Below are positions 7,666-58,999 of a stretch of DNA of 64,000 bases, one piece after another. Each line of letters opens with the position of its first letter. The stretch's first letter is position 1. The notes beneath the pieces are model-generated. The model saw only the letters and a program-made list of their open reading frames with translations. It was not told where the DNA came from and ran no database searches. Made by a program: the position numbers and the translations under genes. Source of the stretch: a virus; IMG/VR virus record IMGVR_UViG_3300015263_000599, positions 1-64,000 of that record; one strand, written 5' to 3'.

Positions 7666-8919
7666 TCACTCATCTCCCTCATCGTCGAACTCGTCGGCCT
7701 CGAAGGGATTGCCTTCAGCGTCAAACTGAACGGTCTTCTCGCCGTATGCACCGCTCTCGGATGCTGCAAGGCCGCTGCCCCAGACATCCAGATAGTCTTG
7801 GACTTCTTGAGCGTCTTTCGCATCGATGAGCTTGGGGCAATCCAGAAGCACCTGAAGCGGGATGCGGTTGTCCGCCTTCTTCGCCTTGAAGGTGTACTTC
7901 TCTTGTCCCTCTGGCAGATAGGCTTCGGCGACCGAATAGGTGCCTTTGCCTGTGATCCGCTCTTCTTGAATCAACGGCACCAGCAATCCACTGATCGGAT
8001 CGACGCCCTGATCGAAGTACAACTTCACATCATCTGCGACCACGAATGGCCGGAACGTGCGGTTCTTGATGTTCTTCACTTGCAGGTTGATGCCAGAGAA
8101 GATTCCCAGATCACGATGCTCGATCTTCTTCTTCGACGCTGTGCGGAATCGCAGAGAAGCGTAGAACTTCATGGCGTTGCCGCCCGGTGTGGTTTCCGGG
8201 TTGCCATACATGACGCCGATCTTGTCACGGGTCTGGTTGATGATGTAGCAGGTGATGTTCTTCTTCACCACTTCTGCTTGCAGCTTTCTCAGTTCCGCCG
8301 AGATCACCTTCGCTCGCTCGCCGGGCTGCTCTTTCGCCCCCACGAGTTTCTTCCATTCAGTGACGGTGAAGTCCAGCGGAAGATTGTTTTCACGAAGTTC
8401 TCGTTCGCACGGCGGAACCGTCAAAGAGTCGAACACAACGACGATGGGTTTGTGAACCACATCCGTCTTCTGTAACTTTGCCAGTTCAATTTCACGCTCA
8501 CGGATCTTGTTGGCCGCAACATGAATTTGCCGGAACGCTCGTTCCAAGCTGGGAGGCGTGTAGCGAATCACACGCTTCAAGTTCAGATGGCTGACACGCT
8601 CCATGAACTCCCCGTTCGAGGCGTTTTCGCAGTCCAGCAGGATGCACCATGCGTCGATACGCTGGGCTCCATAAAGGACGTTCGAACCGAAGAGCGACTT
8701 TCCTGAAGCTTCCGGGCCGAAGGCTTCTGTGATTCGGCCACCGGGAATGCCGCCGTTAATGAATCGGCCTGAACAAGAGTAGTTCACGGCCAAGTTGCCT
8801 GTGTCGATGTAGAAATCGACAGTCTCAAGCTGATCGAGGACATCGCCGCCTGTGTCTGCTGCCAGATCGGCGTACACGTCGTCCATATTGATGTCGTCTG
8901 TTGCCTTTTTGCGGGCCAT
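7666..8919 (-). CDS. uvsX: RecA/UvsX-like recombinase
   Basis: GIPGGRITEAFGPEASGKS, VVFDSL, INQTRDKIGVMYGNPETTPGGNAMKFYASLR. Confidence 0.95.
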   Translation of the reverse strand: MARKKATDDINMDDVYADLAADTGGDVLDQLETVDFYIDTGNLAVNYSCSGRFINGGIPGGRITEAFGPEASGKSLFGSNVLYGAQRIDAWCILLDCENASNGEFMERVSHLNLKRVIRYTPPSLERAFRQIHVAANKIREREIELAKLQKTDVVHKPIVVVFDSLTVPPCERELRENNLPLDFTVTEWKKLVGAKEQPGERAKVISAELRKLQAEVVKKNITCYIINQTRDKIGVMYGNPETTPGGNAMKFYASLRFRTASKKKIEHRDLGIFSGINLQVKNIKNRTFRPFVVADDVKLYFDQGVDPISGLLVPLIQEERITGKGTYSVAEAYLPEGQEKYTFKAKKADNRIPLQVLLDCPKLIDAKDAQEVQDYLDVWGSGLAASESGAYGEKTVQFDAEGNPFEADEFDDEGDE

Positions 8920-9023: not shown

Positions 9024-10058
9024 TTAGCCTTCCATGTCCTGAAGTTCCTTGAGGAAGTCCTCATCTTCGATGGGAGCATCCTCTGCGGCAGGAGCAGCAG
9101 GAGTGCTTGTCGTTTCCACAGATGCAACGGTTTCAGTTGCAGGAGCCGAAGCGGGAACGTCGGCTGGAACGCTCACTCCACCCGGAGTGTGCTCCATGAG
9201 TTCGTTCACTTCGTCTTGAGCCTTCTGACGCCACTTGGCATCGAACTCGTCGGTGTTGAAGGATTCGGTGTCGTCCGGGATCAAGCCACGGTGAATGGCG
9301 AGTTCCTTTTCGAGATATTCCATGTCCTTCGGGTTCCGAAGCTTTGTGAGATCGTGCAGGGCTTCCTGCCACTTCTCGATCTCGGAAGGTTCGCCAGCAG
9401 GGCTTGCCTGACGAGCGAAATCGGAACGGTCGTACTTGGGGAAGTTGTCCGCACCGGGCGTAACTTCCTTGCGAACGATGAAGTCGAAACCGGCCTTCAG
9501 ATCGGTGATGTTACCGAGCTTCGAATCGGGATCATTCTCGTCGCCGACGATGGCCCGAATGATCATCTTGTGCAGGATCTTGCCCACAGACAGGATGCGA
9601 GGACCAGCGTTCTTCTCGGTCTTGCCGTCTTCACCGACAAGGGTGCGGACGATTGCGTTGTAGTAGTAACGCTCGACAGGCTTCATGCTTCTGGCTTCGT
9701 CCTTCAGCTTTTCAGCTTCGACGCCATGACCAGCCTTTTCGAGCTTGTCGATCTGCTTCCACAGTCCGCTGTAGTAATCACAGATCGGACAGGGAACATT
9801 GCGATCCCACTTGCCGTTGATCAGTGGTCGTGGGCAGTGGATCTTACGACCGTTCAACGTGTGAACACGGTTGTATTGAAACAGCTTGCCGCCCTTGACG
9901 GGAGGCAGAATGCGGAGTGCGACGGTCCCGGTTTGGCCGGGCTTCACATTCGGCATGGGAACGAACTGGTCGAGGAAGTTGTTGGTTCCGCCAGCTTCGT
10001 TGAGGCGATCATCTTCGCCTTGCATCTCTTCGAGGTTAAGTGTACCGAATTCGGACAT
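9024..10058 (-). CDS. T4 gp32-like single-stranded DNA-binding protein
   Basis: LRILPP, HC...CPICD Zn site, RYYYNAIV, GFDF, YDRSDF, acidic tail DEDFLKELQDMEG; adjacent to uvsX. Confidence 0.9.
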   Translation of the reverse strand: MSEFGTLNLEEMQGEDDRLNEAGGTNNFLDQFVPMPNVKPGQTGTVALRILPPVKGGKLFQYNRVHTLNGRKIHCPRPLINGKWDRNVPCPICDYYSGLWKQIDKLEKAGHGVEAEKLKDEARSMKPVERYYYNAIVRTLVGEDGKTEKNAGPRILSVGKILHKMIIRAIVGDENDPDSKLGNITDLKAGFDFIVRKEVTPGADNFPKYDRSDFARQASPAGEPSEIEKWQEALHDLTKLRNPKDMEYLEKELAIHRGLIPDDTESFNTDEFDAKWRQKAQDEVNELMEHTPGGVSVPADVPASAPATETVASVETTSTPAAPAAEDAPIEDEDFLKELQDMEG

Positions 10059-37787: not shown

Positions 37788-37790
37788 ACC

Positions 37791-39347
37791 ATGAGCGATG
37801 ACACGACGATGACGAAAGCACGCATCGTGGCAATGGCGATGATCTGGTTTTTCATCCTCGGTATCGTCGTGGTGGCGTGGAAGTTCTGGTGGGCTCCTCG
37901 ACAGCAGGAGATTGCTCAGAACGAACAGGAGCAGCACGAGCAAGAAGTGCTGGACAGAACCAGTTCACAAAGCCGCTACAAGTACGAACTCAACTGGGCG
38001 ATGGACGGGTTTTCCGGCTACGCCCCGTTCCGAAGCCAGATGTTTCGTGATGAGATGGGTCGCTTCGGCGGCAAAGTCAACATCATTGATGACAAGGCCA
38101 ACTACACCGAACGTCTGGGCAACCTCCAGAGCGGCAAGGTGGACATGGCTGTCTTTACCATCGACGCCCTTTACAAAGCATCCGCAGAGTTGGGAGACAT
38201 CCCGGCCACGATTGTCGATTTCATCGATGAGACCAAGGGCGCAGATGCCATGGTCGGGCCGGGAGGATTATTCCCCAACATTGACTCCCTCAACGATCCT
38301 GATTTGAAGATTGTTTGCACTCCCGATTCGCCATCGGAGACGCTGGCACGGGTGGTGATGGCATACTTCAACCTGACCCACATCTCGGACAAGAACTTCG
38401 AGTTCGTTGATGGGGCAGCAGCGGTGTTCGACGCATACAAGAATTCGAAACCCACAGACAAGAAAGTCTTCGTGTTGTGGGAACCTTACGTCAGCCGCAT
38501 TGTGTCCAACCCTGACTACCATGTCATTGTGGACTCATCGAAATTCCGTGGCTACATCGTCGATGTCATTGTGGTCAACAGAGACTTTCTGGTGAAGCAC
38601 GAAGACATGGTGACGGAAGCCGTTAAGGCATATCGAACAACGATCTTCAACAACCGTCGTTCGCCCGACATGGTTGCATTGGTGCAAGCAGATGCTCAAC
38701 AAATTGGTGAGCCGGTGACTCAGGATCAGGCTGTGAAGTTGGTTGGAAACATTTGGTGGAAGAACACACAAGAGAGTTTCGGCCACTTCGGTTTGACCAG
38801 CGGCACAGGGCTGCAACACATCGAGGATATCTGCAACAACATTGCTCGTGTGCTGGTGCGAACTGGTGCCATCCAAAGTGATCCGACAGGTGGGCAACCC
38901 AACAAGTTGTACTACGATGGCATCATGCGGAAGTTGTTCGACTCATCATGGCATCCCGGATTCGCTCAAGAGACGGTGCGGAAAGAGAAGACTCTTGCCG
39001 TGCTGTCGGACGACGAATGGAAAGCCTTGAAGCCAGTCGGAACCTTACAAGTTCCACGACTGGTGTTTGCCAGAGGAACGGAACGCCTCTCAGATCGCAG
39101 CTTTGCGACACTCGACGAACTGGCAAACAAGCTGGAGTCGTGGCCGCAATACTACTTGGTTGTGAGAGGCAACGTGTCTTCCGAAGGAGATGTGGATGCC
39201 AACCGCCAGTTGGCCCAATCTCGTGCAGATGCTACTATCGAGTATCTGGTTGGGAAGGGCGTGGCCCGACAGCGAATCCATGCTGAAACCAGTCATCCCA
39301 ACGGTTCTTCTACAGTGGCCTTCATTCTGGGCGAAGTGCCGTACTAG
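37791..39347 (+). CDS. Membrane-anchored substrate-binding protein with OmpA-like domain
   Basis: N-terminal TM, DETKGADA, LWEPY, IVDVIVV; C-terminal ANRQLAQSRADA. Confidence 0.82.
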   Translation: MSDDTTMTKARIVAMAMIWFFILGIVVVAWKFWWAPRQQEIAQNEQEQHEQEVLDRTSSQSRYKYELNWAMDGFSGYAPFRSQMFRDEMGRFGGKVNIIDDKANYTERLGNLQSGKVDMAVFTIDALYKASAELGDIPATIVDFIDETKGADAMVGPGGLFPNIDSLNDPDLKIVCTPDSPSETLARVVMAYFNLTHISDKNFEFVDGAAAVFDAYKNSKPTDKKVFVLWEPYVSRIVSNPDYHVIVDSSKFRGYIVDVIVVNRDFLVKHEDMVTEAVKAYRTTIFNNRRSPDMVALVQADAQQIGEPVTQDQAVKLVGNIWWKNTQESFGHFGLTSGTGLQHIEDICNNIARVLVRTGAIQSDPTGGQPNKLYYDGIMRKLFDSSWHPGFAQETVRKEKTLAVLSDDEWKALKPVGTLQVPRLVFARGTERLSDRSFATLDELANKLESWPQYYLVVRGNVSSEGDVDANRQLAQSRADATIEYLVGKGVARQRIHAETSHPNGSSTVAFILGEVPY

Positions 39348-39364
39348 GAGTTTGGGGATGTTCA

Positions 39365-40102
39365 ATGAGCAAAGATTTACGCAAGCAGATTCTACTCGAC
39401 CTGTTTATCACGCCAGCGACGGTGATCCCATTCCTGATCGGAGGGACGCTGTTGATGCTGTCGGCGATACTGGGCGGGTACTCGGCATTCCTTGGGTTTG
39501 TCGGGATTCTCCTGTCTTTTGGAGCTTTGTTGACTAACTGGGTATTCAACCTCGGAAAGATCAGCCGCAACGCCGTGAAGCGGTTGCACCAACAGGAGAA
39601 ACAACAACGAGAAGCGGAACTAGATGCCCTCGATGCAAAACTCGTAACGAATAAAGATCCACGGGATCAAACGGCTCTGCGAAATCTGCGAGCTTTATAC
39701 AACTCGTTCTGTGACGATTTGCATGACGGCAAGGTCACTCGCAATGTGCCTCCAAAGCTGTTGCAGTTGATCGAAGAAATTTTCGGCGAGTGTGTGACCA
39801 ATCTGAGTCGTGCATGGGACATCTGGAACACCTCTCGCAGCCTTCAAGGCGATCTCAAAGAGAAGCTCTTGGAGCAGCGAGAAAACCTGATCGTAGAAGT
39901 TGAGAGCAGTGTCCACATCTTGGCAGAAACGATCAACGAAGTTCGGGCGTTGAAGCTGAAGACTGATGCGGGTGAAATGGAGCGTTTGAGGCAGAAACTT
40001 GTGTCTCAATTGCAGGTCGCTAAAGCGACAGAAGAAAGCGTGGCGTCACTCGACGCAGAACTCAACTCGAAGAGTTACGACGAGTACGCCGATTACAAAT
40101 GA
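39365..40102 (+). CDS. 2-TM coiled-coil protein (XpaC-like architecture)
   Basis: Two N-terminal TMs then helical bundle. Confidence 0.7.
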   Translation: MSKDLRKQILLDLFITPATVIPFLIGGTLLMLSAILGGYSAFLGFVGILLSFGALLTNWVFNLGKISRNAVKRLHQQEKQQREAELDALDAKLVTNKDPRDQTALRNLRALYNSFCDDLHDGKVTRNVPPKLLQLIEEIFGECVTNLSRAWDIWNTSRSLQGDLKEKLLEQRENLIVEVESSVHILAETINEVRALKLKTDAGEMERLRQKLVSQLQVAKATEESVASLDAELNSKSYDEYADYK

Positions 40103-40176
40103 GTTGACCTTTACAGGCCAGTCTCGATCCCTACAATGGATCGGATGGCATCGCACGACAAAAGGAGATTGCGACG

Positions 40177-40968
40177 ATGGGACGATACTTCAAAGCCCTC
40201 TGGTACATGTTGACCGGGCGATTCAGTGCAGCAGCCGACGCACTGCAAAGCAACAAGTATGTGATGGCGGCGACCTACGACAAGTCGATTGAGAAAGGTG
40301 CGGATCGTTTCAATACGGTGAAAGACGCCGTAGCGAAGCTGATGAGCATCGAGCAAGATCGGGTGGCTACCATCAAGACGCTCTCGGGGGATGTCGAGAG
40401 TCTGACGAAGAAGATGAATGGCGCACAAGTCGCCATGCAGAAGCGAATCAACGCTCTCAAAGCCGAGGGCAAGACCAAGGAACAAATCGAGGCCGATGCC
40501 GAGTTCATCAAGCATCGTGGGGCCTTCATGGATATGAAGTCCACGATTGCTGAGAAGGATGCCCGGATCGGCGAACTCGAAGAAGACCTGAAGAACCGTC
40601 GCCAGCAGATCGCCACCTACAAGGCAGAACTGCAACAGATGCAACGTCAGCAAGCTTCTCTCAAAGAAGAGAAACACGAAGCTCTGGCCGACGTGGCGAT
40701 TGCCGAACAGGCAGAAGCCATCAACTCTGTGCTGGCCGGTATCTCAGAAGACACTACAGACAAGGATTTGCAAGCAGCACGAGAAGCTCGTAAGGCAGCC
40801 AAAGCCAAAGCGGCAATCACCTCCGAACTGGCAGGTAACGATGCACGGCTGGCCGAGAACGAGTACCTTCAGTATGCTGCTGAATCTGAAGCTGACAGCG
40901 AGCTTGATGATCTGCTCGACTGGGGCGAGAGCGATTCGGAAATGAAGGATGTGCAAATCCCCGAGTAA
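40177..40968 (+). CDS. PspA/IM30-like coiled-coil protein
   Basis: N-terminal amphipathic helix MGRYFKALWYMLTGRF, long coiled coil, ELDDLL tail. Confidence 0.65.
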   Translation: MGRYFKALWYMLTGRFSAAADALQSNKYVMAATYDKSIEKGADRFNTVKDAVAKLMSIEQDRVATIKTLSGDVESLTKKMNGAQVAMQKRINALKAEGKTKEQIEADAEFIKHRGAFMDMKSTIAEKDARIGELEEDLKNRRQQIATYKAELQQMQRQQASLKEEKHEALADVAIAEQAEAINSVLAGISEDTTDKDLQAAREARKAAKAKAAITSELAGNDARLAENEYLQYAAESEADSELDDLLDWGESDSEMKDVQIPE

Positions 40969-41032
40969 CTCAAGCCCAATCGACACGACCGGATGTTCCG
41001 GTCGAAACATCACCTACAAGGAGTGAAGGACA

Positions 41033-42157
41033 ATGAAGCGAATTGCAATTTTTGGAATGTTGCTCGCTGTGACAACCCTCATCGGTTGCGGCGGCAACGA
41101 CGGTGGCGATGCTGCCCCCGACAACAGCGGAGAACAGGCCAGCGGCCAAACCGGACAAACCAGCAACGACAGCTATCCAGCGTTTGTCCACACAGCGTCA
41201 GAGTATCCCTCGTGGTCAACCTTCATGGTGGCCGCAAAAGCAGGGCTCATCAATCCCGAGCAGGGCGGTCAGCACGGCACTCTGGAAACCAAGTACGGCG
41301 TCGATGTCGTGCTTCAGGTGAAGGACTACGATCCGTGCATCACCCTCTATGCCAACGGCACCTGTGATTCAACGTGTATCACCAACATGGATGCCCTGAA
41401 TCCCGCCATGGGACGCAAGACAACGATCATCATGCCGACCAGCACCTCAGCCGGTGCCGACAAGGTGATTGCTGTGGGCGCAACATCCATTGACGATCTG
41501 AAGGGATTGACCACCTACGGTCTGGCGAAGAGTGTCAGCCAATACTGCTTTGTGCGAGGTTTGCAGACGCAAGGTCTCAATCCGGCTGATTTCCAGTTCA
41601 AGAATCTCGATCCTGCCCCGGCTGCTACTGCTTTGCAGACTGGCAGCGGCGACGTGAAGGCGATCTCTGTCTGGAATCCGTTTGCCCTTCAGACTCTCCG
41701 CACCAACAAGGACGCCAAGGAAATCTTCTCGTCCACGACGATCCCAGAAGAGATCATCGACTGCGTGGTGATCGGCAATGATTCGTTGGAGAAGCCCAAG
41801 GGCAAGGAGTATGCTGCCTGCCTTTGCGAAATCTTCTATGAAGTCAACAAGCGTCTGAACTCTTCGGACAGCAGTGTCTCTGACGCCACACTGACGGCGT
41901 TGGGCGAAGACTTCTCGAAGCTACCTCTCGAAGACATGCGAATCGTCGTGCAGGAAACTCGATTCTACGGAACGCCTGCTGCCGGTATCGCTCTGTTCGA
42001 GAATCAGAAGTTCCAGACGCAGACCATGCCCACTGTGATCACGACATGCCAGCAGATCGGCGTGCTCGAAGAAGGACAGCAGCCTACTGTCGGCTTCAAT
42101 GACGACAGCAAGCAACTCAACTTCACGACGGAGTTCATGCGTCAGGCATCTCAGTAA
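41033..42157 (+). CDS. ABC transporter substrate-binding lipoprotein (NMT1/SsuA-like)
   Basis: Lipobox LIGC; TNMDAL, STSAGAD, VWNPF, IPEEIID. Confidence 0.85.
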   Translation: MKRIAIFGMLLAVTTLIGCGGNDGGDAAPDNSGEQASGQTGQTSNDSYPAFVHTASEYPSWSTFMVAAKAGLINPEQGGQHGTLETKYGVDVVLQVKDYDPCITLYANGTCDSTCITNMDALNPAMGRKTTIIMPTSTSAGADKVIAVGATSIDDLKGLTTYGLAKSVSQYCFVRGLQTQGLNPADFQFKNLDPAPAATALQTGSGDVKAISVWNPFALQTLRTNKDAKEIFSSTTIPEEIIDCVVIGNDSLEKPKGKEYAACLCEIFYEVNKRLNSSDSSVSDATLTALGEDFSKLPLEDMRIVVQETRFYGTPAAGIALFENQKFQTQTMPTVITTCQQIGVLEEGQQPTVGFNDDSKQLNFTTEFMRQASQ

Positions 42158-42339
42158 GGGCCAATAGCTCAGCGGTAGAGCACTCGTTGATTTCGTGGAG
42201 TATGCGTGACCGAGCTTGGTAAGGTGCGTGATTCTTCACGGTACGGACTTAAAAAGCCGTGGGAAGTTCGAATCTTCTCGCCAATGCTGTGCGAAATCGA
42301 TGAGAAGGGGGTGGGTTCGAGCCTCACCTTGGTCCACCA
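42158..42339 (+). ncRNA. tRNA-like RNA with a nested second tRNA-like domain in place of the anticodon loop
   Basis: Outer acceptor GGGCCAA/TTGGTCC-A-CCA, D arm GCTC/GAGC, T loop TTCGAGC; 14-bp stem leading to an inner cloverleaf with its own D arm, T loop TTCGAAT and long variable arm. Confidence 0.8.
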
Positions 42340-42345
42340 AACACC

Positions 42346-42382
42346 AAGCCCGTCCGTCCCAAGCGACGGGCGGGCTTTTTTG
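42346..42382 (+). terminator. Intrinsic terminator after the tRNA-like RNA
   Basis: AAGCCCGTCCGTC...GACGGGCGGGCTTTTTT. Confidence 0.8.
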
Positions 42383-42443
42383 CTAAACCCCTCTCCAAAT
42401 TATCCTTACAATGCTGATGACCTCATAACGAAGGAAACCGGAT

Positions 42444-43391
42444 ATGTTGGGCGGCTTACTCGCAGGGATTGTTCTCATCCTTTTGGGATGGCTGCTCGTT
42501 GTGTTCAGCGGTTCTGGACGGATCAAGCAACATCTTACGACTCGCAGCAAAATCATTTGGGGAGTCGCAGGTGTCTCTGTGCTGGCTGTGACCTATAGCT
42601 GGCTCTCTTTTCGCCAACACGAACGCAACCCCGACGACACCACGATTCCGACATTCAGTCAGTTGGCACATGGGTTCATGCGAACCGTCACGCCATCTTC
42701 CGACGACAAAGAGAACGCTTTACGAGTGGCCTTCGGCCAACCCACGCAAGAGAAAACTTTCTGGCAGAAAGTTCAATCGACTTGGCTCTATCAAGACTCT
42801 GTGGCGACTTATGGTCGTCTCATCAAAGGTCTAGTGTGGGGCTGCATGTTGTCCATTGTTCTCGGCACACTCATGGGATGCTACGAGTGGCTAGGGAGTT
42901 TCCTGTTGCCTCCGCTTGCTCTGCTTGCCAAGACGCCGGGGACAGCCATGCTGGCCGTCTTCTTTGTGATCGTCGGCACTGGCGAGCCAATGTTCATTAC
43001 GATGATTGGCTTCGGGGTTCTCCCGACGCTGACACAAACGATCTACTTGGCGGCGAAGGACGATCTTCATAGAGAGCAGATCGATAAGGCATATACGCTC
43101 GGTGCGGACAACACTGAACTTGTATGCAATGTCGTGTTTCCTCAGATACTTCCGAAGGTGATCGACAGCGTGCGATTGCAAATCGGGCCAGCTATGGTAT
43201 TCTTGATTGCCGCCGAAATGTTGGTCGGCGATGTCGGCATGGGATACCAAATCCGAATGCAGCAAAGGCTGCAACAGATGAACATCGTTTACAACTACTT
43301 GTTCTTGCTAGGGATCACCGGTCTGCTTATGGATCAAGCCATGATTCGTCTGCGGCAATGGTTGTGCCCGTGGTTCGACATCAAAAGGTAG
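42444..43391 (+). CDS. ABC transporter permease (SsuC/TauC-like)
   Basis: Multiple TMs, AYTLGA EAA-like loop, LIAAEM..GMGY. Confidence 0.9.
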   Translation: MLGGLLAGIVLILLGWLLVVFSGSGRIKQHLTTRSKIIWGVAGVSVLAVTYSWLSFRQHERNPDDTTIPTFSQLAHGFMRTVTPSSDDKENALRVAFGQPTQEKTFWQKVQSTWLYQDSVATYGRLIKGLVWGCMLSIVLGTLMGCYEWLGSFLLPPLALLAKTPGTAMLAVFFVIVGTGEPMFITMIGFGVLPTLTQTIYLAAKDDLHREQIDKAYTLGADNTELVCNVVFPQILPKVIDSVRLQIGPAMVFLIAAEMLVGDVGMGYQIRMQQRLQQMNIVYNYLFLLGITGLLMDQAMIRLRQWLCPWFDIKR

Positions 43392-43394
43392 GTC

Positions 43395-44357
43395 ATGTCG
43401 GTGAACAACATAGCGTTAAACATCAAAGGTGTCAGTCAGTGGTTCGGCGATAACCGTGTGCTGTACGACATCAATCTGAAAATCGTGCAAGGTCAGTTCG
43501 TCGCACTCGTAGGAGAAAGCGGATGCGGAAAGAGCACTTTGCTTCGTGCCATTCTCGGGACTCTCCCGCCCAAGGAAGGCACCATCGAAACTGACGGAAT
43601 TCCCGTCACTGGCCCCAACCACAACGTCGGCGTCGTCTACCAGCATTACGACTTGTATGATTGGATGACAGCCGAGAAGAACGTCGCCTTCGGCCCCATG
43701 CTGCATCAGACCAGCATTTGGAATCGCACGTTCGGGTTCTTGAAATGGATGAAGTTGCGAAAGCAACACTTGGCGCAAGCGAGGGACATGCTGACTCGCT
43801 TCCGACTTGGCAACGCATATGATCGCTATCCTGCCGAGCTTTCGGGCGGGATGCAACAGCGGGTGGCGATTGCCCAAGCCCTCATCATGAAGCCGAAGAT
43901 TTTGCTTCTTGACGAGCCCTTTGGGGCTTTGGATGAGGCGACCAGAGAGGAACTGCAAGGGGTTCTTCTCATGCTCTATGCCGAAAACATGGAAGCTCGC
44001 AAGCGTGGTGAGATGCCGCCGTGGACGGTGATGATCATCACACATGAGCTTGATGAAGCCTTCTATGTGTCTGATCGAGTGATAGGACTCTCTCGACAGT
44101 GGTATGAAGACACCGACACGGGCCGCAAGGAAGGCAAGGCGTGCGGTGCAACTAAAGTCTGGGACAAATCCGCTCCCGTTTATCACCCTGACGATGAGCG
44201 TGACTTCAGCAGGTTCCACGATGCCAAGCTGGAGTTGCGAAGCAAGGTGATCAAAGCGGAGGCTCCCATGGAACGATCCGAACATGTCTCATTTTGGTCC
44301 GACCTAGAAAACGGAGTCGGATCAGGAGTCGCATTCACAAGGAGTCCTCATGTCTGA
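43395..44357 (+). CDS. ABC transporter ATP-binding protein (SsuB/TauB-like)
   Basis: GESGCGKS, LSGGMQQR, LLLDEPFGALD, ITHELDEA. Confidence 0.95.
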   Translation: MSVNNIALNIKGVSQWFGDNRVLYDINLKIVQGQFVALVGESGCGKSTLLRAILGTLPPKEGTIETDGIPVTGPNHNVGVVYQHYDLYDWMTAEKNVAFGPMLHQTSIWNRTFGFLKWMKLRKQHLAQARDMLTRFRLGNAYDRYPAELSGGMQQRVAIAQALIMKPKILLLDEPFGALDEATREELQGVLLMLYAENMEARKRGEMPPWTVMIITHELDEAFYVSDRVIGLSRQWYEDTDTGRKEGKACGATKVWDKSAPVYHPDDERDFSRFHDAKLELRSKVIKAEAPMERSEHVSFWSDLENGVGSGVAFTRSPHV

Positions 44358-45298: not shown

Positions 45299-45614
45299 GC
45301 AACGCAAACCCTTCACGCCCAAGCAGGCGGAAGACAAGAAGATCGAGGTCATTCCCCCTCAAGTCATCGAGGCTTTCGAGGAACTGATCGTCGAGAATCT
45401 CAGAGGCGGCACCGCCACCATCAAACAAGATGATGTGGTCAATCGGATTCACGAGAAGATGACAGGCGTGAAGACCCAAGAGATGTTCGACAAAGGATGG
45501 CTGGATGTCGAAGATCTCTTTCGCAAGGCTGGGTGGGAGGTCGAGTATGACAAACCCGGTTTCAATGAATCGTACCCGGCCACCTTCACCTTCTCGAAAA
45601 AGAGGAAACGATGA
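45291..45614 (+). CDS. Hypothetical phage protein
   Basis: 107-aa coupled ORF. Confidence 0.75.
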   Translation: MTEQRKPFTPKQAEDKKIEVIPPQVIEAFEELIVENLRGGTATIKQDDVVNRIHEKMTGVKTQEMFDKGWLDVEDLFRKAGWEVEYDKPGFNESYPATFTFSKKRKR

Positions 45615-46582
45615 GTAAGGAAATCGCAATCGTCATCGGCTACAATGCTGCCGGGAAAAGTACACTCGTGCGAGAGTTCGAGCAGGACGGATATCATCGA
45701 ATCAATCGTGACCTAACGGGCGGGACCATCGAGGCGCAGGTCGAGCTTGCTCGCAAAGCGTTAACGACCCATGACAGGGTTGTATTGGACAACACCTACC
45801 CCACGATTGAGAGTCGTGAGTCAATCGTGGCCCTCGGCCAACAAATGGGAATTCCCGTTCGCTGCGTTTGGCTCACGACATCTTTTGAAGACGCCCAACT
45901 CAATGCTTGTCTTCGCATGATGGAGCAGAGAGATCAGCTTCTCATGCCAGAGGATTTCAAGAAAGAGAAGAGTCCCAATCTCTTCCCGCCTGTCGCCCTC
46001 TTCACCTACAAGAACAAGTTCGAGAACAAGAAGGGCGAGCAGAAGCATCCCGGCAAGCAAGACCCCAAGAAAGAACACGGGTTCTTTGTGGTCGAAAAAC
46101 GCCCGTTCGTTCGCCAGTGGCCTGCGGAGTTCTGCAACAAGGCTTTGTTGCTCGACTACGACGATACGTTAAGGCGAAGCAAGGGCGATAAGAACTGGCC
46201 CGAGAAACCAGAAGATGTGGAGATCCTTCCGAACCGCAAAGAGGTTCTGGACGAGTATGTGGCTAATGGATGGAGGTTGCTGGGCGTCAGCAATCAGTCG
46301 GCCATTGCCAAGGGTCTTAAACGAGAAGACGCCGTTGCGTGCTTCGAGCGGACCAACGAACTTCTGGGGCACGACATCGAATACATGTTCTGTCCTCATC
46401 AAGTGCCGCCTGTGAATTGCTACTGTCGCAAACCACATCCGGGGATGGGAGCACACTTCATCTGGAAGTATAAGTTGCTGCCGAGTGCTTGTATTATGGT
46501 CGGCGACCAAACTTCTGACAAAACATTTGCGTCCCGATGCGGATTCGTGTATAAAGAAGCCGAAGAGTTCTTCGCTCTTTAA
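45611..46582 (+). CDS. Polynucleotide kinase/3'-phosphatase (AAA_33 + HAD-IIIA)
   Basis: GYNAAGKS, INRD, VLDNT; DYDDT, VSNQS, CRKPHPGM, MVGD..SD. Confidence 0.9.
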   Translation: MSKEIAIVIGYNAAGKSTLVREFEQDGYHRINRDLTGGTIEAQVELARKALTTHDRVVLDNTYPTIESRESIVALGQQMGIPVRCVWLTTSFEDAQLNACLRMMEQRDQLLMPEDFKKEKSPNLFPPVALFTYKNKFENKKGEQKHPGKQDPKKEHGFFVVEKRPFVRQWPAEFCNKALLLDYDDTLRRSKGDKNWPEKPEDVEILPNRKEVLDEYVANGWRLLGVSNQSAIAKGLKREDAVACFERTNELLGHDIEYMFCPHQVPPVNCYCRKPHPGMGAHFIWKYKLLPSACIMVGDQTSDKTFASRCGFVYKEAEEFFAL

Positions 46583-51473: not shown

Positions 51474-52778
51474 TTGTGCGGAGATGGCACCATGCTGCGA
51501 CCCATGCCTGCGAAATACGGTATCGGATTCACCTCACCAGAGCCCGTGGCTCCCGATCTGGTGGAAGGCTACCGGTATGAGCAGACAGGAAATCACCACA
51601 ACTACTTCGTCACCCCTCAGCGGTGGGATTGGCCCGAGAGATTCGATTTCGGGTCCGTCGCTCCGGTCATTGATGGGTTCTCTCCGAACCTCAATAAACA
51701 GTTGCACGTTGGGCACTTACGCAACCTTGCCCTCGCCAACTCCCTCTCTCGCATCCTGAAGAACGCAAAATTTGTATCGCTGCTTGGATGCAGTCTTGGA
51801 GTGCGTTTCGCAGCCCTCGAAGGCTGGAAGTATTGGACGGAATTCTTGGGGTTCCAGCCGGAAGTCTACTATGACTGTGCTCTGCCCGACGATCTGATCC
51901 CAACCAGAGAGCCAACAGTTGCCGAGGTTGAATCAGACCTAATCGATCCCAATGAAGGCGACGATCTGACATTGCCGGAATTATGGGATGGCCCCAATGG
52001 TCCGGTGATCGTTAAGCGATCCGACAAGCGACCACTCTATGCCTATCACGATCTGGCGTTCGCTCAGATCGTTGGTCCCGATCACTACATCACAGGCGAA
52101 GAACAAAAGATTCATTTCGCTTCGTTAGGTCTGGGTGACAAACACTTGCCAATGGGTTTGGTGTTGGGACTTGACGGCAAGAAGATGAAGTCTCGTGAAG
52201 GCGATGTCCTTCTGGCAACCGAGGCTGTGCAGATGGTTAAAGAGCATTTGCGACAAACACAGCACGCTGATCAACTGGCGTGGAACATTCTTGCTTGGAA
52301 CTTTTTACACACGGCCCGAAAGTCGAATCTGAAGTTTGAGGCTGAAAAATGGACGCAGCCAGATTCACCGGGAATGTACATCAGCTACACTTACGCTCGG
52401 ACGTGGAACGCATTGGAAGAAGCGGTCCCCCTTCGCAACCCCATTCCGATTGGCCCCTTTTATGGATTCGACCCGGATTACTTGAAAATCCTGAAGCGTT
52501 CGGGTTCCACTGTTGATACGGAAATCACAGAGATCGATCTCGACCTGTTAGGTCTTTCTGAGCAATACATCTTCTACTACCAGCAAGCCATCGAACGACT
52601 CGATCCGGCACCGGTTGCGAATTACGCTCATGACTTAGCCCGCCTAATCGGCGTGGCGTATGAGAGGGAGCGAATTCAAGAGGGTCGCCCTGTCTTCCAG
52701 CGTGCAATGGCACATGCGATCTGGCGTCTGGAACACTGCTTGCAAGATCTTGGCATGTTCAAGCTCCAAACAGTCTGA
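51474..52778 (+). CDS. argS: Compact arginyl-tRNA synthetase-like protein
   Basis: FSPNLNKQLHVGHLRN (HIGH), KRSD..PLY..DLA, GEEQ..HF, GKKMKSREG, YISYTYAR and DALR-like C-terminus; start uncertain. Confidence 0.85.
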   Translation: MCGDGTMLRPMPAKYGIGFTSPEPVAPDLVEGYRYEQTGNHHNYFVTPQRWDWPERFDFGSVAPVIDGFSPNLNKQLHVGHLRNLALANSLSRILKNAKFVSLLGCSLGVRFAALEGWKYWTEFLGFQPEVYYDCALPDDLIPTREPTVAEVESDLIDPNEGDDLTLPELWDGPNGPVIVKRSDKRPLYAYHDLAFAQIVGPDHYITGEEQKIHFASLGLGDKHLPMGLVLGLDGKKMKSREGDVLLATEAVQMVKEHLRQTQHADQLAWNILAWNFLHTARKSNLKFEAEKWTQPDSPGMYISYTYARTWNALEEAVPLRNPIPIGPFYGFDPDYLKILKRSGSTVDTEITEIDLDLLGLSEQYIFYYQQAIERLDPAPVANYAHDLARLIGVAYERERIQEGRPVFQRAMAHAIWRLEHCLQDLGMFKLQTV

Positions 52779-52855: not shown

Positions 52856-54025
52856 GTGACCATGTTTCGATTCGGCAAACCTCTTGCTCTAGTGGTTGCC
52901 CTGCTTTTTCTCGGAGCAACGTGCTTCGAACATGGTGCGTATGCACAAAAGCGAAGCAGCGGTAGCAGCAGGCCCAGTTCGGGCAGCAGTCGGCCTTCTT
53001 CATCATCATCGAAGCCCAAGTACGGGTCTCCCAACAGCGGCAGCAAGCCGCCTTCTTCCAAGCCCCCATCGAGCAAGCCGCCTTCGACCAGCAGCGGTTC
53101 CAAGCCCAAGTTCGGTTCGCCAAACAGCGGCCAGTCTTCCAAGCCACCTGCAAGCAACAGCGGTTCCAAACCGCCTTCGACCAGCAGCGGCAGCAAGCCC
53201 AAATTCGGTTCGCCCAACAGTGGTCAGACCCCCTCGACAGGCAGTGGTTCCAAGCCGCCTTCGACCAGCAATAGTTCCAAACCCAAGTTCGGCTCGCCGA
53301 ATGCAGGGAACCCTTCTTCTCCCACTACTTCTCGGAATCCCAACACCAGCAGTCGCCCTCCCACTTCATCCAGCGGAGCCAAGGAGCGGGCTAATCAAGC
53401 GGCGACAAGCAAGCGGGTTTATCAGGAAACGCAGCGTGCAACTGCACCTCCGAAGCCGTCCTACACTACGTCGGATGGGCATACGGTCAATGTGCGGACA
53501 AATTCCGCTCATGTGCAAGCGATGCGAAGCAAACCATCCTCGTATTACACGCCCGCCGCACGACAGACTCGGATCACCAATCACATTCATCATTACCATT
53601 ACGCCCACGACTATAACTGGTACTACAGCCAGCCGCACTACTATGTCGGCGGTGGGTACAGTTCGTCATTCTGGTGGATGATGATGGAGTGGTCGGCTGA
53701 GCGACGAGCCAGATGGCTATACCATAATCGGTATAGCATCGAAGCGGCTGCATACCAACGTGGTTTGCAGGATGCCGCTGTTGCTGCACAGATTCAGCAG
53801 CTTGAGGCACAAAACGTGGCCCGTAACACGGACTATGTTGACCCCGAGTTTGCTGAAAATCCCAGCATGATGTATAGCCAAGAGTACATCGAAGCTGCTT
53901 ACAACCCCACGGTGCTATCACCGGGGTCAGATGCAGCATTGACAGTCCTTCTGTGGATAATCATCATTGGGGTGGTCGGGTATGCCATCTTCCTCTTCAT
54001 GACGAAGGTGAGATTCGGCAGGTAA
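52856..54025 (+). CDS. Exported low-complexity Ser/Pro/Lys-rich membrane protein
   Basis: Signal peptide AYA|Q, SKP repeats, Tyr/His/Trp-rich domain, C-terminal TM. Confidence 0.75.
   Translation: MTMFRFGKPLALVVALLFLGATCFEHGAYAQKRSSGSSRPSSGSSRPSSSSSKPKYGSPNSGSKPPSSKPPSSKPPSTSSGSKPKFGSPNSGQSSKPPASNSGSKPPSTSSGSKPKFGSPNSGQTPSTGSGSKPPSTSNSSKPKFGSPNAGNPSSPTTSRNPNTSSRPPTSSSGAKERANQAATSKRVYQETQRATAPPKPSYTTSDGHTVNVRTNSAHVQAMRSKPSSYYTPAARQTRITNHIHHYHYAHDYNWYYSQPHYYVGGGYSSSFWWMMMEWSAERRARWLYHNRYSIEAAAYQRGLQDAAVAAQIQQLEAQNVARNTDYVDPEFAENPSMMYSQEYIEAAYNPTVLSPGSDAALTVLLWIIIIGVVGYAIFLFMTKVRFGR
52955..53375 (+). repeat. Coding tandem repeats (4x KPK[FY]GSPN[SA]G plus SKPPS[ST] units)
   Basis: Repeated AAGCCCAAGTTCGGTTCGCC and AAGCCGCCTTCGACCAGCA variants. 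Confidence 0.8.
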
Positions 54026-54074
54026 CATCCTCAGTGTCAGGATGACAGGTTGTTGTCACACGAAAGGACTAAAC

Positions 54075-54806
54075 ATGACTTCGGCAGATGGCAGAGGGCG
54101 AACGCTGTTCGAAATCCTCACCGGTCGAAACAAGAAAGACATGCGGCCTCTGGAATTCCAGTATCACAATCCACTGGAAGCCAAGGTCGGATGTACGATC
54201 AGTTTCGACCACGAACCTGAGATCAGCGGCATCAATTTTGTGATCGAGAAAATCTCGGTTTACAAGACGACGATTGACCGCAAAGACTTCTACCACACAG
54301 ACTATCACCTCAAGGGGATTAGCCTCGACCACAACAAACCGGTCAGAATGAGGCTGCGTCTGATTCCCGACGAGAACGTCATCGATCAACTCGGTCACAA
54401 GGTGCAGTTGATGTACCTGTACGACGAGGTGCCCTATGACGAAGGCTTGCACAAAACGGTGCTGGCCGATCCCTCGGGTGAGTTCTGGGTGAACTACGAC
54501 GATGAAGGCAACGAGCTTCAGGAGCCACGCACCTACTGGCGTGTCGGTTCCAACGAGCATTGCCCTTGTCCCGATCCTTACAGTGCTCGTTGCACTATCC
54601 TCTCAGACGTGGATGGCGACGGCACGGTCGAAGACGACGAACTGGAACACTACAGCACGACGTACTGGGAGTTCAGCCGCATGACTGACGACCAGAACGG
54701 ACAAGAGTTCGAAGAGTTCCTGACCGTCGAGATGAATGACGACTCTGGCTTCTTCACGTTCCTGCGTGGATCGGAAGTCAAGCCTTCTCAGATCATGGTG
54801 TTCTAA
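54075..54806 (+). CDS. Hypothetical acidic protein (DUF4178-like, tentative)
   Basis: MTSADG...; YWEFSR...FLTVEM...FLRGSEV. Confidence 0.7.
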   Translation: MTSADGRGRTLFEILTGRNKKDMRPLEFQYHNPLEAKVGCTISFDHEPEISGINFVIEKISVYKTTIDRKDFYHTDYHLKGISLDHNKPVRMRLRLIPDENVIDQLGHKVQLMYLYDEVPYDEGLHKTVLADPSGEFWVNYDDEGNELQEPRTYWRVGSNEHCPCPDPYSARCTILSDVDGDGTVEDDELEHYSTTYWEFSRMTDDQNGQEFEEFLTVEMNDDSGFFTFLRGSEVKPSQIMVF

Positions 54807-54828
54807 CAACGGCAGTAGCCGTCCCCAA

Positions 54829-54866
54829 AGGGGGCGCAGGCGACATCACCCTGCGTCCCCTTTTTC
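54829..54866 (+). terminator. Intrinsic terminator
   Basis: GGGGGCGCAGG...CCTGCGTCCCC-TTTTT. Confidence 0.7.
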
Positions 54867-54899
54867 ATTCAATGGAGGCTTACGTTCAGGGAGGAAGTC

Positions 54900-55934
54900 A
54901 TGGACGTACTATATTTGCTGGGCGGATCGTTCGCTGTTGGATTTCTGGCCTTCTCTGCCGTCACGGCCTTCAAGGCTTCTCGCCGCAAACCCGCCGTCGC
55001 TGTTCCCAAGGAAGAACCACTCATACTTGCTGGCGATGTGCCGCCTGAATTTCAGGCTGCTGCCTCTCGTATGGAAAATGTGGTTGTCCAATCAGAACCG
55101 GAACCAACCAAACAAGAAGAGGACAAGCCCAAGTTCGTCGATCCAAAATTTGGACTGCACGAATATCCTCCTCCTTTCCCCAACGGTTTCTTGCAGCTTG
55201 AGCACGGAGTCAACAAGATCAGGTTGTTGCCTCCAGTCAAAGGGCACCCATTCTTCGTGGCCCGACGCCAGCACTACAATTTGGAAGACAGGAAAAATTC
55301 TGTCGTCCAGTGCAACAAAGAGAAGGAGTCAGGCAAGGACTGGAAAGGGAACTGCCCCATTTGTGATGCGTGGAAGGCCCTCTGGAAAGAGGCTCAAGCC
55401 GCAGAAGAAAAGGGAAACTGGCAACGAGCCAATGAACTCAGCAGTCAAGCTCGCCAAATCAAGCCGGTCGAGCGGTATTACTACAACGCCATCGCCAGAG
55501 ACAGAGGAACTGGGCAGCCACAAATTCTGGCTGTTCCGAAGGCGATCCATCAAGAGATTGTTCGCATCGTCATTGGAGATGAAGAACAAGGCGAAGAAGG
55601 GTACGGCGACATTTCTGATGTTCATACTGGCCGAGACATCAAGATTATCAAAGAGACGCTGGGAAGATCTCAGTGGCCTCGCTACACAGTGATGCCGGTC
55701 TACAAAGAATCTGTGATCAGTGAATCTGTGGAAGCCGCCAACGAATTTCTGACCACTCTGTGGAATCTGGAAGCGGCAGCCCATTCATGGGAGAAGGATC
55801 AATCGATCATCCAGCGTGTCGCCGCAAGAGTCATGGCTCGTAGCAACGTCCAACAGCGAGAGAACGACGCCGAGTTGTGCGATGAAGAGTTTCTTGCTGA
55901 ATTGAACAATCTGTCTGCCAACTACCTTCAGTGA
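54900..55934 (+). CDS. Second gp32-like SSB paralogue with N-terminal transmembrane anchor
   Basis: IRLLPPVKG, CPICD..ALWK, KPVERYYYNAI, IH..IVRIVIGDE, DEEFLAEL match ORF 9024..10058; N-terminal hydrophobic helix. Confidence 0.85.
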   Translation: MDVLYLLGGSFAVGFLAFSAVTAFKASRRKPAVAVPKEEPLILAGDVPPEFQAAASRMENVVVQSEPEPTKQEEDKPKFVDPKFGLHEYPPPFPNGFLQLEHGVNKIRLLPPVKGHPFFVARRQHYNLEDRKNSVVQCNKEKESGKDWKGNCPICDAWKALWKEAQAAEEKGNWQRANELSSQARQIKPVERYYYNAIARDRGTGQPQILAVPKAIHQEIVRIVIGDEEQGEEGYGDISDVHTGRDIKIIKETLGRSQWPRYTVMPVYKESVISESVEAANEFLTTLWNLEAAAHSWEKDQSIIQRVAARVMARSNVQQRENDAELCDEEFLAELNNLSANYLQ

Positions 55935-56038
55935 AAGCTTTACCCGCCCTCTAAACTGTCATACAATGGCATAGGAGGGTTGATCGCACGTCGCACAGCC
56001 CCCGCAAACACGGGGGCTTTTTTGTTGGAGAGGTATGA

Positions 56039-57142
56039 ATGCTCACACGAGACAAGATCAAAGGTATGCTCATTGGCGGGGCCATCGGGGACGCATGGGG
56101 CATGGGCGTAGAGACTTGGACGCCCGAGAAGATCCTAGAAGTGCATCCCAATGGTCTTCCTCGTTTTGTTGCGCCCATCGGCCACAAGTGGTTCGATCCA
56201 GAAAAACATCCACCGGGAACCACCACCGACGACACACAACTCACAATTGCTACCATGCGGGGACTGCTGGATGGAAAGGCCGCTGCGGACCAGTCCCGCA
56301 GCTTCGATGATTTCATGGACGCCATCGCCAAAGCCCACTGCGAAGCCATGCAGGAAACGGATGCTGGGTGGGGCAACACAACCCGTGAGGCCATCAGGCG
56401 GCTCCAGAACGGCGTCAGTTGGCGTGTATCTGGCAAGACCAGTGAGCGGCATCGAGGCACCGGCAATGGCATCCCCATGAAGATCTCTCCACTCGGAGCG
56501 TGGTATGCGACCCCTTATGGGGCTGATCTTTGTGACGCAAAGCAGGGTTTCAATCAACGCTGCGTCGAATACTCGGCGATGACCCATTACACACAGATGT
56601 CGGCTCAGGCTGGAATCATCCATGCCCACGCCGTCTTCTTCTGTCTGTGGTCTTCGCCAGAGCGATTCCACCGTGACGACTTCTTCGATCTCGTTTCGGA
56701 TTGCGTCTGGGAATGGGGCGAAGGCAAAACAGAGGCAGATCGCAACGATCACACCTTCTACGATGTCTCGCACCTCAATGAGACCGAAGACAATCTGAAG
56801 GATCAGTTCGTCAAGTTGTGGCAGTTCCGGGACGAAATGACCGACGAGAAGATTCACGAACTCTTCGGTCCCGGCTCGTGCTATGTCTATGAGAGCCTGC
56901 CGTTCAGTTACGCATGGTTCTTGCGTGACTGGTCGTCAATGCAAATTTTGCAACGGGTCGTTGAGGCTGGGGGAGACACCGATACCAACGCCAAAATGGT
57001 CGGGGAAATGCTGGGAGCGTTGCACGGCATGTCCTTGTTCGAGCGAGAAGAAAACAAGTGGGCCATCGAAGATCTCGATGACACCGTTTACACGCTTGTC
57101 GATCTCGCCGACGAATTCTGTGACGCTTTCGGGATTGAATGA
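56039..57142 (+). CDS. ADP-ribosylglycohydrolase (DraG/ARH family)
   Basis: GAIGDAWG, TTDDTQ, GNGIPMK, MTH, GGDTDT..MVGEMLGA. Confidence 0.92.
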   Translation: MLTRDKIKGMLIGGAIGDAWGMGVETWTPEKILEVHPNGLPRFVAPIGHKWFDPEKHPPGTTTDDTQLTIATMRGLLDGKAAADQSRSFDDFMDAIAKAHCEAMQETDAGWGNTTREAIRRLQNGVSWRVSGKTSERHRGTGNGIPMKISPLGAWYATPYGADLCDAKQGFNQRCVEYSAMTHYTQMSAQAGIIHAHAVFFCLWSSPERFHRDDFFDLVSDCVWEWGEGKTEADRNDHTFYDVSHLNETEDNLKDQFVKLWQFRDEMTDEKIHELFGPGSCYVYESLPFSYAWFLRDWSSMQILQRVVEAGGDTDTNAKMVGEMLGALHGMSLFEREENKWAIEDLDDTVYTLVDLADEFCDAFGIE

Positions 57143-57914: not shown

Positions 57915-58308
57915 CTTGAAGGTCGCATTTGGGATGGGGATGATGGTAGCCGTTTTCCTCAAGGCTTTCTTCTCCATCGCCTTCGGGACGGGTTTTGCGC
58001 CGATGCTGGTGGCTCTGAATGGAATAGGATTCATCATCGGATTGTTTCTTGCGGTGTGGGGAACCAGCGGGTCACGCTATCTCGGGCAAGTTGCCGCCGC
58101 ATCGCTCATGGCCCCGGTGTCCGCACTGTGGGCTCTTTACGTTTTCCAACATTACCCTTTGGGTATTCGGGACAAGGTGGACGGCCTGACGTATGCTTGG
58201 GTCCATCTGCAAGTTCATCGGGACTTGTACATTTTTCCGATCCTCATGTTCTCAGGAGCCTTATTGCTCGCTGCTTGGAAGCCAAAGTCAAATGAAACGG
58301 TTCAGTGA
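57892..58308 (+). CDS. 4-TM membrane protein
   Basis: Hydrophobic ORF. Confidence 0.7.
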   Translation: MSQFKTRDLKVAFGMGMMVAVFLKAFFSIAFGTGFAPMLVALNGIGFIIGLFLAVWGTSGSRYLGQVAAASLMAPVSALWALYVFQHYPLGIRDKVDGLTYAWVHLQVHRDLYIFPILMFSGALLLAAWKPKSNETVQ

Positions 58309-58999
58309 TCAAAAACGAGTTCTGCCAGCGTTCCCCCGAACGCCGCATCTTCCGTGGAGCCAAAACACAGAAGATGACGATCTCATTGCGGAACAAGCTG
58401 AACTTCAACCGTTGTTCGATAATCCGGTCAACGTCGAAGAGAAAATCGATGGTGCCAGCGTTGGTATGACATTCTGGCAAGGCCACCCCCTCATTCGTAA
58501 CCGTGACCACATACTTCGTAAGGGGTATGTGAAAGACACACCGGCGAAGAAGCAATTCGCCCCCATCTGGAACTGGTTCTACGATAACCAGAAAAAGTTT
58601 GAGTACATTCTGAGCCATGGGCCGCTTAGTGTGTATGGGGAGTGGATGGTCGCTCGCCACGGCATCTACTATGACCGGCTTCCAGATTTGTTCATCGCCT
58701 ACGATGTGTACAACTACGAGGCCGACTACTTCCTCTCGCCAACCATCGCTCGTCCAATGCTCGAAGAGTGCGGCTTCGCCATCCCTCGCCTGTTTCATCA
58801 AGGCGACCCCCTTCCCTCGGAACTTCCCGACTGGATCAACTCACAAGGGCAGTGGTGCGATAGCGTCGTAGAAGGTCTGTACTTCAAGGTTCACAATGGC
58901 GAACGAATCACTCACCGATTCAAACAAGTGAGTGATCAGTTTGTGCGTGGGCAGTTTTGGGACGGAAAGACGTTGCTCAAGAACGGAGTCGCCAAATGA
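58292..58999 (+). CDS. ATP-dependent RNA ligase family protein
   Basis: FPRTPHLPWS, EEKIDG (motif I), YGEW, FIAYDV, EGLYFK, RFKQV. Confidence 0.88.
   Translation: MKRFSDQKRVLPAFPRTPHLPWSQNTEDDDLIAEQAELQPLFDNPVNVEEKIDGASVGMTFWQGHPLIRNRDHILRKGYVKDTPAKKQFAPIWNWFYDNQKKFEYILSHGPLSVYGEWMVARHGIYYDRLPDLFIAYDVYNYEADYFLSPTIARPMLEECGFAIPRLFHQGDPLPSELPDWINSQGQWCDSVVEGLYFKVHNGERITHRFKQVSDQFVRGQFWDGKTLLKNGVAK

Follow-up and report, generated by a model that had tools for sequence, protein, structure and literature searches.

[quoted passage not shown] How and why phage replication is membrane-associated is an old question, on which the locus analyzed here bears; in older work gp69 is said to be a membrane-associated T4 replication protein. 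The window, a 64,000-nucleotide stretch of DNA analyzed here as a whole, belongs to a 94,452-base IMG/VR virus record that is estimated to be 67% complete, and exactly two gp32 genes were found. One encodes a canonical SSB. The other lies 45 kb from this copy, outside the UvsX/SSB cluster, and is referred to below as the anchored SSB gene for the predicted transmembrane (TM) segment of its product. The features of both loci are collected in Table 1.

Table 1. Positions in the window of the two gp32-type genes, of the elements of the anchored SSB and of neighboring features.
Feature	Position	Strand	Basis or remark
Anchored gp32-type SSB gene	54900..55934	+	344 aa plus stop; ORF list, Pfam gp32, phrog_1192, AF2 model
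Predicted transmembrane anchor, residues 3-24	54906..54971	+	hydrophobic helix without charged residues, contains Gly14
Basic cluster KASRRK, residues 25-30	54972..54989	+	immediately after the helix; marks the cytoplasmic side
Pro/Glu/Lys-rich linker, residues 31-90	54990..55169	+	predicted disordered
gp32 core (OB fold), residues 91-300	55170..55799	+	Foldseek, profile search, Pfam
Putative zinc ligands His125, Cys138, Cys152, Cys155	55272..55364	+	clade alignment
Presumed ssDNA-contacting strand K188-P-V-E-R192-Y-Y194-Y-N196	55461..55487	+	clade alignment
C-terminal acidic tip D-E-E-F-L-A-E-L, residues 328-335	55881..55904	+	end of long C-terminal helix
Shine-Dalgarno GGAGG	54890..54894	+	5 nt ahead of ATG; direct sequence reading
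Terminator-like hairpin and T run, 3′ of the upstream gene	54827..54863	+	RNA fold
Intrinsic-terminator-like hairpin and T run, 3′ of the anchored SSB gene	55997..56018	+	
Conserved upstream neighbor, 254 aa, acidic	54042..54806	+	61% counterpart, same position in relative
ADP-ribosylglycohydrolase, conserved downstream neighbor	56039..57142	+	PF03747, E 1e-46; 54% counterpart
Polynucleotide kinase/phosphatase-like protein and RNA ligase	45611-46582, 58193-58999	+	around the anchored SSB gene
Canonical soluble gp32-type SSB	9024..10058	-	Pfam 45 bits; adjoins UvsX-like gene
UvsX-like recombinase gene	7666..8919		phrog_97, E 7e-53

The product of the second gene is a gp32-family SSB by its Pfam match, its predicted core and its identity to the canonical copy. 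It matched PF08804 with 39.2 bits over residues 102-297 and the canonical SSB matched with 45.4 bits (curated cut-off 26.8), while phrog_1192 was matched by both copies (E 1.4e-24 for the anchored one). A preliminary description of this DNA, made from the letters alone, had proposed that the two proteins are paralogues, and our comparison bore this out: all of the motifs that it listed are present in both (LPPVKG, CPICD, LWK, an identical KPVERYYYNAI, H..I.R...GDE and a tail of the form D-E-[ED]-F-L-x-E-L), and BLASTP aligned them with 39% identity over 183 aa of the core (E 7e-34). An AlphaFold2 (AF2) model of the anchored SSB, built from a 29-sequence alignment and having a mean pLDDT of 84, contains a compact core at residues 91-300 (pLDDT >90) followed by a long C-terminal helix (residues 301-343). 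Using Foldseek, the core was matched to RB69 gp32 (2a1k; E 3.5e-8, TM 0.71, probability 1.00), to T4 gp32 (1gpc; TM 0.65, probability 1.00) and to the gp32-Dda complex 8gme, and nothing significant was returned beyond gp32 structures. Similarly, a profile of the anchored clade recovered RB69 gp32 from the PDB (2a1k/2atq) at E 3e-4, a PDB search with the single anchored sequence gave no match, and an ESM Atlas search again led to a gp32 assignment.

The residues expected to matter most for such a fold are retained. Throughout the 29-sequence clade alignment the putative zinc ligands H125, C138, C152 and C155 do not vary, and the canonical copy has a matching H...C...CxxC pattern that aligns with them by BLASTP. 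In the presumed ssDNA-contacting strand, K188, R192 and Y194 are likewise invariant and N196 is nearly so; in the profile match, K188-x-x-x-R192-x-Y194-x-N196 was aligned to K-R-K-T-S-Y-W-A-N of RB69 gp32. Because these invariant residues serve the fold and DNA contact, ssDNA binding by the anchored SSB is most likely retained.

The two ends of the protein were also compared with those of known gp32 proteins. In T4 gp32, partners in replication and recombination dock on the acidic C-terminus. The canonical copy ends in the same tip motif as the anchored SSB (E-D-E-D-F-L-K-E-L), and 15 of 32 anchored relatives have the motif, versus 59 of 112 canonical proteins. The acidic region of the anchored SSB is short, however, with only ~32 aa beyond the core match, versus roughly 95 aa in the canonical protein after residue 250, where its Pfam match ends. 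The N-terminal segment of T4 gp32 mediates cooperative binding. Residues 1-91 of the anchored SSB did not align to the N-terminus of the canonical copy in BLASTP, and the conserved N-terminal segment of the latter has no clear counterpart there; the low-confidence helix at residues 49-60 or an L..L..LR stretch that precedes the core in one subclade might be such a counterpart, both stretches being very short.

In the place of that segment lies the element that raised our question. The hydrophobic N-terminal helix and the basic KASRRK stretch pointed out in the preliminary description are both there: residues 3-24 are uncharged, the best 19-residue Kyte-Doolittle mean is 1.97, as against 1.14 in the soluble canonical copy, and KASRRK comes next. 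This is the pattern of a signal anchor, 22 uncharged residues followed by a basic cluster, and the same pattern occurs in 32 relatives. Among 20 homologues from our first search the best window did not exceed 1.56, except in one cluster representative (P0009), itself anchored at the N-terminus (2.38). In the AF2 model, residues 2-28 form a single helix with pLDDT >90, and the values for the linker (about residues 30-90) lie at 44-58; a linker of 60 residues has a contour length of roughly 20 nm.

Whether homologues keep such a helix had been set beforehand as the check on which the anchor could fail. When 1.84 billion cluster representatives were searched exhaustively with HMMER, 389 matched at E <=0.001; the best 150 of the 389, together with the proteins of the first search, made up a scanned set of 168 representative homologues, in which a TM segment was called clear when a window starting within the first 41 residues had a Kyte-Doolittle mean of >=1.6. 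Among the 32 clusters with >=60 aa ahead of the core, 27 have a clear N-terminal TM segment and three are borderline. The two that have none are P0022 and P0058, of which the latter is placed among the canonical proteins by the tree described below. None of the ~120 canonical-length gp32 proteins in the 168 scanned has an N-terminal helix of the anchor type. The check thus came out in favor of the anchor, which homologues retain.

In ~30 clusters the layout is the same, namely a stub of 0-4 residues (often Met-Asp/Glu), an uncharged helix of 18-25 residues, 3-7 Lys/Arg within the 15 residues behind it (five in the anchored SSB), a linker of variable length and the core; the entire stretch ahead of the core measures from about 60 to 310 aa. 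Since this one layout is common to ~30 homologue clusters, the N-terminal helix is not an accident of annotation. Furthermore, Met1 and Gly14, the latter in the context F-x-x-G-x-x-x-F, are invariant in the 29-sequence alignment, and the invariant glycine within the anchor suggests helix-helix packing, in the form of either self-association or docking to a membrane partner. The exception, P0022 (696 aa), is the closest relative of the anchored SSB among the matches listed, with 43% identity; its N-terminal extension of 375 aa has neither a hydrophobic helix nor a Pfam match and is either a swapped targeting module or the result of a merged gene call.

Two further features were seen in the relatives. 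A fragment of ~40 aa that is homologous to the K-P-x-E-R-Y-Y-Y-N strand of the core lies inside the linker of P0026 (86-122), P0044 (175-213), P0065 (130-167) and P0157 (312-340), so that part of the core is repeated ahead of its complete copy (domain E 1e-7 to 2e-3). In one subclade, found on contigs of up to 664 kb, a zinc-ribbon-like, Cys-rich insert with many CxxC pairs separates the core from the acidic tip (P0009, P0030, P0044, P0056, P0062, P0065, P0069, P0083, P0101, P0123 and P0136); P0056 and P0062 carry it twice, and one of the proteins with the insert was named 'rubrerythrin' by JGI. Pfam searches of the relatives' long linkers and Cys-rich inserts gave nothing convincing, with weak zinc-finger hints only.

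Is the anchored copy a recent duplicate of the canonical gene? In a FastTree phylogeny of 152 cores, 26 anchored proteins fell inside one set of 30 rows with a support of 97. The other four rows were P0136, which is anchored but was missed by our filter, P0035, which has a short hydrophobic start, the fragment P0137, and P0022. Two long-branch anchored proteins were placed at the base of the opposite side. In a quick IQ-TREE analysis of 57 cores (LG+C20 PMSF), the label 'anchored' changed once on the tree, on a branch with an SH-aLRT of 65. These trees are read most simply as showing that the anchor arose once, long ago, although this is not strongly proven. The canonical SSB of the window sits deep within the canonical group (79% identical to P0008) and the anchored SSB in a separate clade, and the two are thus old paralogues; a recent duplication within this genome was rejected, as the copies belong to different old clades. 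Judged by these comparisons of sequence, the anchored SSB is a rare but old and conserved gp32 variant that is kept beside the soluble SSB.

A second genome allowed the surroundings of the gene to be compared. IMG/VR record 3300027976_003308 (64.7 kb; G001 in our numbering), of which 3300027983_001732 is a near-identical twin, is collinear with the window phage over most of its length and also has both gp32 genes. Its anchored copy, P0170, occupies the slot between the homologues of the 254-aa ORF (61%) and of the ADP-ribosylglycohydrolase (54%). The median identity of the two phages is 56.8% over 43 protein pairs and their canonical SSBs are 71% identical, whereas the anchored copies share only 27% identity over 221 aa. 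The anchored copy is thereby the lowest-identity syntenic gene of the 43 pairs, the next real (non-shadow) pair having 37%, and the two syntenic copies sit in different subclades of the IQ-TREE tree. Because its identity is below that of all syntenic genes and the subclades differ, the anchored gene either changes much more quickly than the genes around it or was exchanged within its slot. A conflict-related role, or replacement of the gene, fits such divergence no worse than does a housekeeping organizer.

The protein encoded immediately upstream (54042..54806), unmatched in both Pfam and PHROG, is a possible functional partner of the anchored SSB. With the ADP-ribosylglycohydrolase, the polynucleotide kinase/phosphatase-like protein and the RNA ligase around it, the neighborhood looks like an (RNA-)repair or counter-defence set rather than a replication module. 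Two genes farther upstream, neither of which has a counterpart in the syntenic relative, are also of note. The first (52856-54025, +) encodes a 389-aa protein without a family match that has a signal-like N-terminus, a long Ser/Pro/Lys-rich repeat region with units like G-S-K-P-P-S-T-S, and a C-terminal TM helix. The second (51474-52778, +; 434 aa) weakly matches the catalytic domain of arginyl-tRNA synthetase (E 2e-8, a span of only 33 residues) and also the DALR anticodon-binding domain; it could be a synthetase that has been reduced or repurposed. Elsewhere, a set of envelope and membrane genes (36858-44357, +) that includes vWA, OmpA-domain, ABC permease and ATPase genes is kept in the syntenic relative, and a lipoprotein-type signal sequence is present at 41033..42157. 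A PspA-like identity for one member of this set was not borne out by Pfam at E 0.001. Because of the OmpA domain and the lipoprotein signal, the host of the window phage is probably diderm. In a rough scan of the whole genome, the anchored SSB was the sole DNA-metabolism protein with an N-terminal TM segment.

By cluster look-ups, clade members sit on contigs as long as 664 kb (P0044) and 477 kb (P0062), and on shorter ones of 49 kb (P0030) and 28 kb (P0065); huge phages therefore carry the anchored family. The coexistence of anchored and canonical gp32 was seen in two related phages, the only ones for which genomic context was available. Scans of IMG/VR, both with alignments and with single proteins, returned canonical gp32 only, except in the two near-identical records of the G001 type, and neither JGI metagenomes nor GTDB genomes yielded further anchored members. 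With a degenerate DNA pattern for A-N-L-W-D-L-E, 11 chance matches were obtained, none of them gp32. Among cultured phages, tblastn with the anchored SSB as query (E <=1e-5) matched four records, Bacillus and Lysinibacillus phages among them; in the one that was inspected, LR756511.1 (595 kb), the match is a canonical copy beside a RecA-like gene.

What might such a protein do? The domain layout suggests tethering of replication or recombination complexes to the membrane, and we consider it on balance probable that the anchored SSB is a gp32-family membrane tether for ssDNA and for the partners of the gp32 tail at the inner membrane. We infer that the protein inserts into the membrane, binds ssDNA and recruits partners, as well as the process that this serves: one N-terminal transmembrane helix would hold a gp32-type SSB in the host cytoplasmic membrane, its short N-terminus outward and all else on the cytoplasmic side. 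About 60 flexible residues would link this anchor to an intact gp32 core, complete with its putative zinc site and OB-fold strand, which would bind ssDNA exposed at replication forks or in recombination intermediates. The C-terminal tip would recruit the partners of the soluble SSB, that is, recombinase, helicases and polymerase; the window phage encodes a UvsW-like helicase, a DnaB-like helicase and a PolA-type polymerase. Part of the phage DNA metabolism would thereby be held at the inner membrane, as it is by p16.7 in phi29. Several observations stand against the tether: about half of the clade lacks the acidic tip, P0022 lacks a TM segment, the cooperativity segment has no clear counterpart, the divergence is extreme and the neighbors are repair-like. 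If it does hold, a conserved clade that is tied to the membrane and accompanies the soluble form would give phage DNA metabolism a spatial dimension where no protein nucleus is built. The locus also offers a testable handle, being one small gene with a clean domain layout and having the soluble paralogue as a built-in control.

We also speculate, with somewhat less confidence than an even chance would warrant, that the tether is part of something larger, a membrane-tethered gp32 hub that fixes the replication and recombination of large non-nucleus-forming phages, those of the 477-664 kb contigs included, to the inner membrane. The invariant anchor glycine would then mediate oligomerization or docking to a membrane partner. 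Such a hub would be a widespread gp32-based counterpart of p16.7, and membrane-attached replication factories would be general in big phages.

The domain layout of the anchored SSB differs from that of every described gp32. It shares with T4 and RB69 gp32 (PF08804; 1gpc, 2a1k, 8gme) the OB fold, the putative His/Cys3 zinc site, the aromatic strand and the acidic tip; in contrast to these, it has a predicted TM anchor and a disordered linker in place of the short N-terminal cooperativity segment and is encoded in addition to a canonical gp32. The preliminary description had stated that no equivalent is known in this family. That part stands so far: no description of a membrane-anchored gp32 was found in the full text that we covered, which included a jumbo-phage genomics survey and lay outside most subscription journals; beyond the family, a functional analogue does exist in p16.7. 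The membrane anchor of p16.7, too, sits at the N-terminus. This phi29 membrane protein binds ssDNA and terminal protein and gathers intermediates of replication at the membrane (PMC4974454, PMC11476376). The likeness is functional only, each being a phage membrane protein with a cytoplasmic ssDNA-binding part, which in the anchored SSB is predicted. The p16.7 structures (1zae, 2bnk, 2c5r) were absent from the listed Foldseek matches, there was no family match to p16.7, and whereas p16.7 belongs to a small protein-primed Bacillus phage, the anchored SSB is a gp32 paralogue of large phages with a probably diderm host. An inner-membrane storage pool has also been proposed, in discussion, for E. 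coli SSB and its partners (PMC7584906); that protein, however, is of an unrelated family without a transmembrane segment, and its association was proposed to occur via condensates rather than an anchor (PMC7584906).

The main rival to the tether is that the anchored copy acts in conflict, serving at the membrane as a decoy, a shield or a regulator, which we regard as unlikely but deserving of weight. The anchored copy might titrate some factor of host defence by which phage SSB, or ssDNA coated with SSB, is sensed, or it might sequester the partners of the gp32 tail for timing. Of the genes in synteny between the two related phages it has diverged most (27% versus a 57% median), and its two copies sit in different subclades; this is consistent with such a role, as are the wide variation of linkers and added domains, including the Cys-rich inserts and the partial core-strand repeat, and the presence of ADP-ribosylglycohydrolase, RNA ligase and polynucleotide kinase/phosphatase-like genes nearby. 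However, the invariant putative zinc ligands and OB-fold strand point to real ssDNA binding and not to surface mimicry, the clade is old and widespread with a conserved anchor, and no defence or anti-defence family was matched in our searches outside the PADLOC library. If true, this reading would reveal a new, membrane-located type of counter-defence built from an SSB.

An SSB that is predicted to bind ssDNA close to the membrane on a flexible tether could also, as the preliminary description suggested in second place, capture ssDNA entering there, whether by conjugation, by transformation or from ssDNA phages, or could interfere with superinfecting phages. We consider this improbable: tailed phages deliver double-stranded DNA, the locus holds nothing that resembles an entry or exclusion system, and the retained tip, presumably partner-binding, would be of no obvious use in exclusion.

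In the membrane tether that we prefer, the SSB domain would face the cytoplasm. By the positive-inside rule, the positively charged flank of a membrane helix marks its cytoplasmic side. Net charge, averaged over 32 clade members, is +2.8 behind the helix and +0.4 ahead of it, a pattern that predicts an N-out/C-in topology with a cytoplasmic SSB domain and disfavors a cleavable secretion signal. The N-terminal segment is hydrophobic, as a secretion signal sending the SSB domain to the periplasm would need to be, but no positively charged region precedes it, its 18-25 residues are long for a signal peptide, the immediate Lys/Arg cluster, a pattern shared by 32 proteins, opposes export of the C-terminal part, and beyond the cytoplasm there is no obvious substrate for a zinc-finger protein that binds ssDNA. 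Export is thus very improbable, and a signal peptide was rejected on the charge pattern around the helix.

Least credible of all is an artefact in which translation really starts at Met58 and the hydrophobic segment is never made: an in-frame Met does occur at this position (codon at 55071), but no Shine-Dalgarno-like site lies ahead of it, GGAGG stands at 5-nt spacing before the first ATG, and the helix, invariant Gly and basic cluster are kept in ~30 clusters at 25-45% protein identity, so that the internal start, for which the preliminary description had asked for a check, was rejected. The annotated ATG is the earliest ATG, GTG or TTG available in frame, and the ribosome-binding site ahead of it is the GGAGG that had been claimed. 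The anchored SSB gene has, in addition to its own ribosome-binding site, a terminator-like hairpin on either side. On the upstream side, an RNA fold of 54800-54905 contains a G+C-rich stem of 14 bp (-41.4 kcal/mol, z -3.3 versus shuffles), and the hairpin on the downstream side has an 8-bp stem with seven G-C pairs, followed by TTTTTTGTT.
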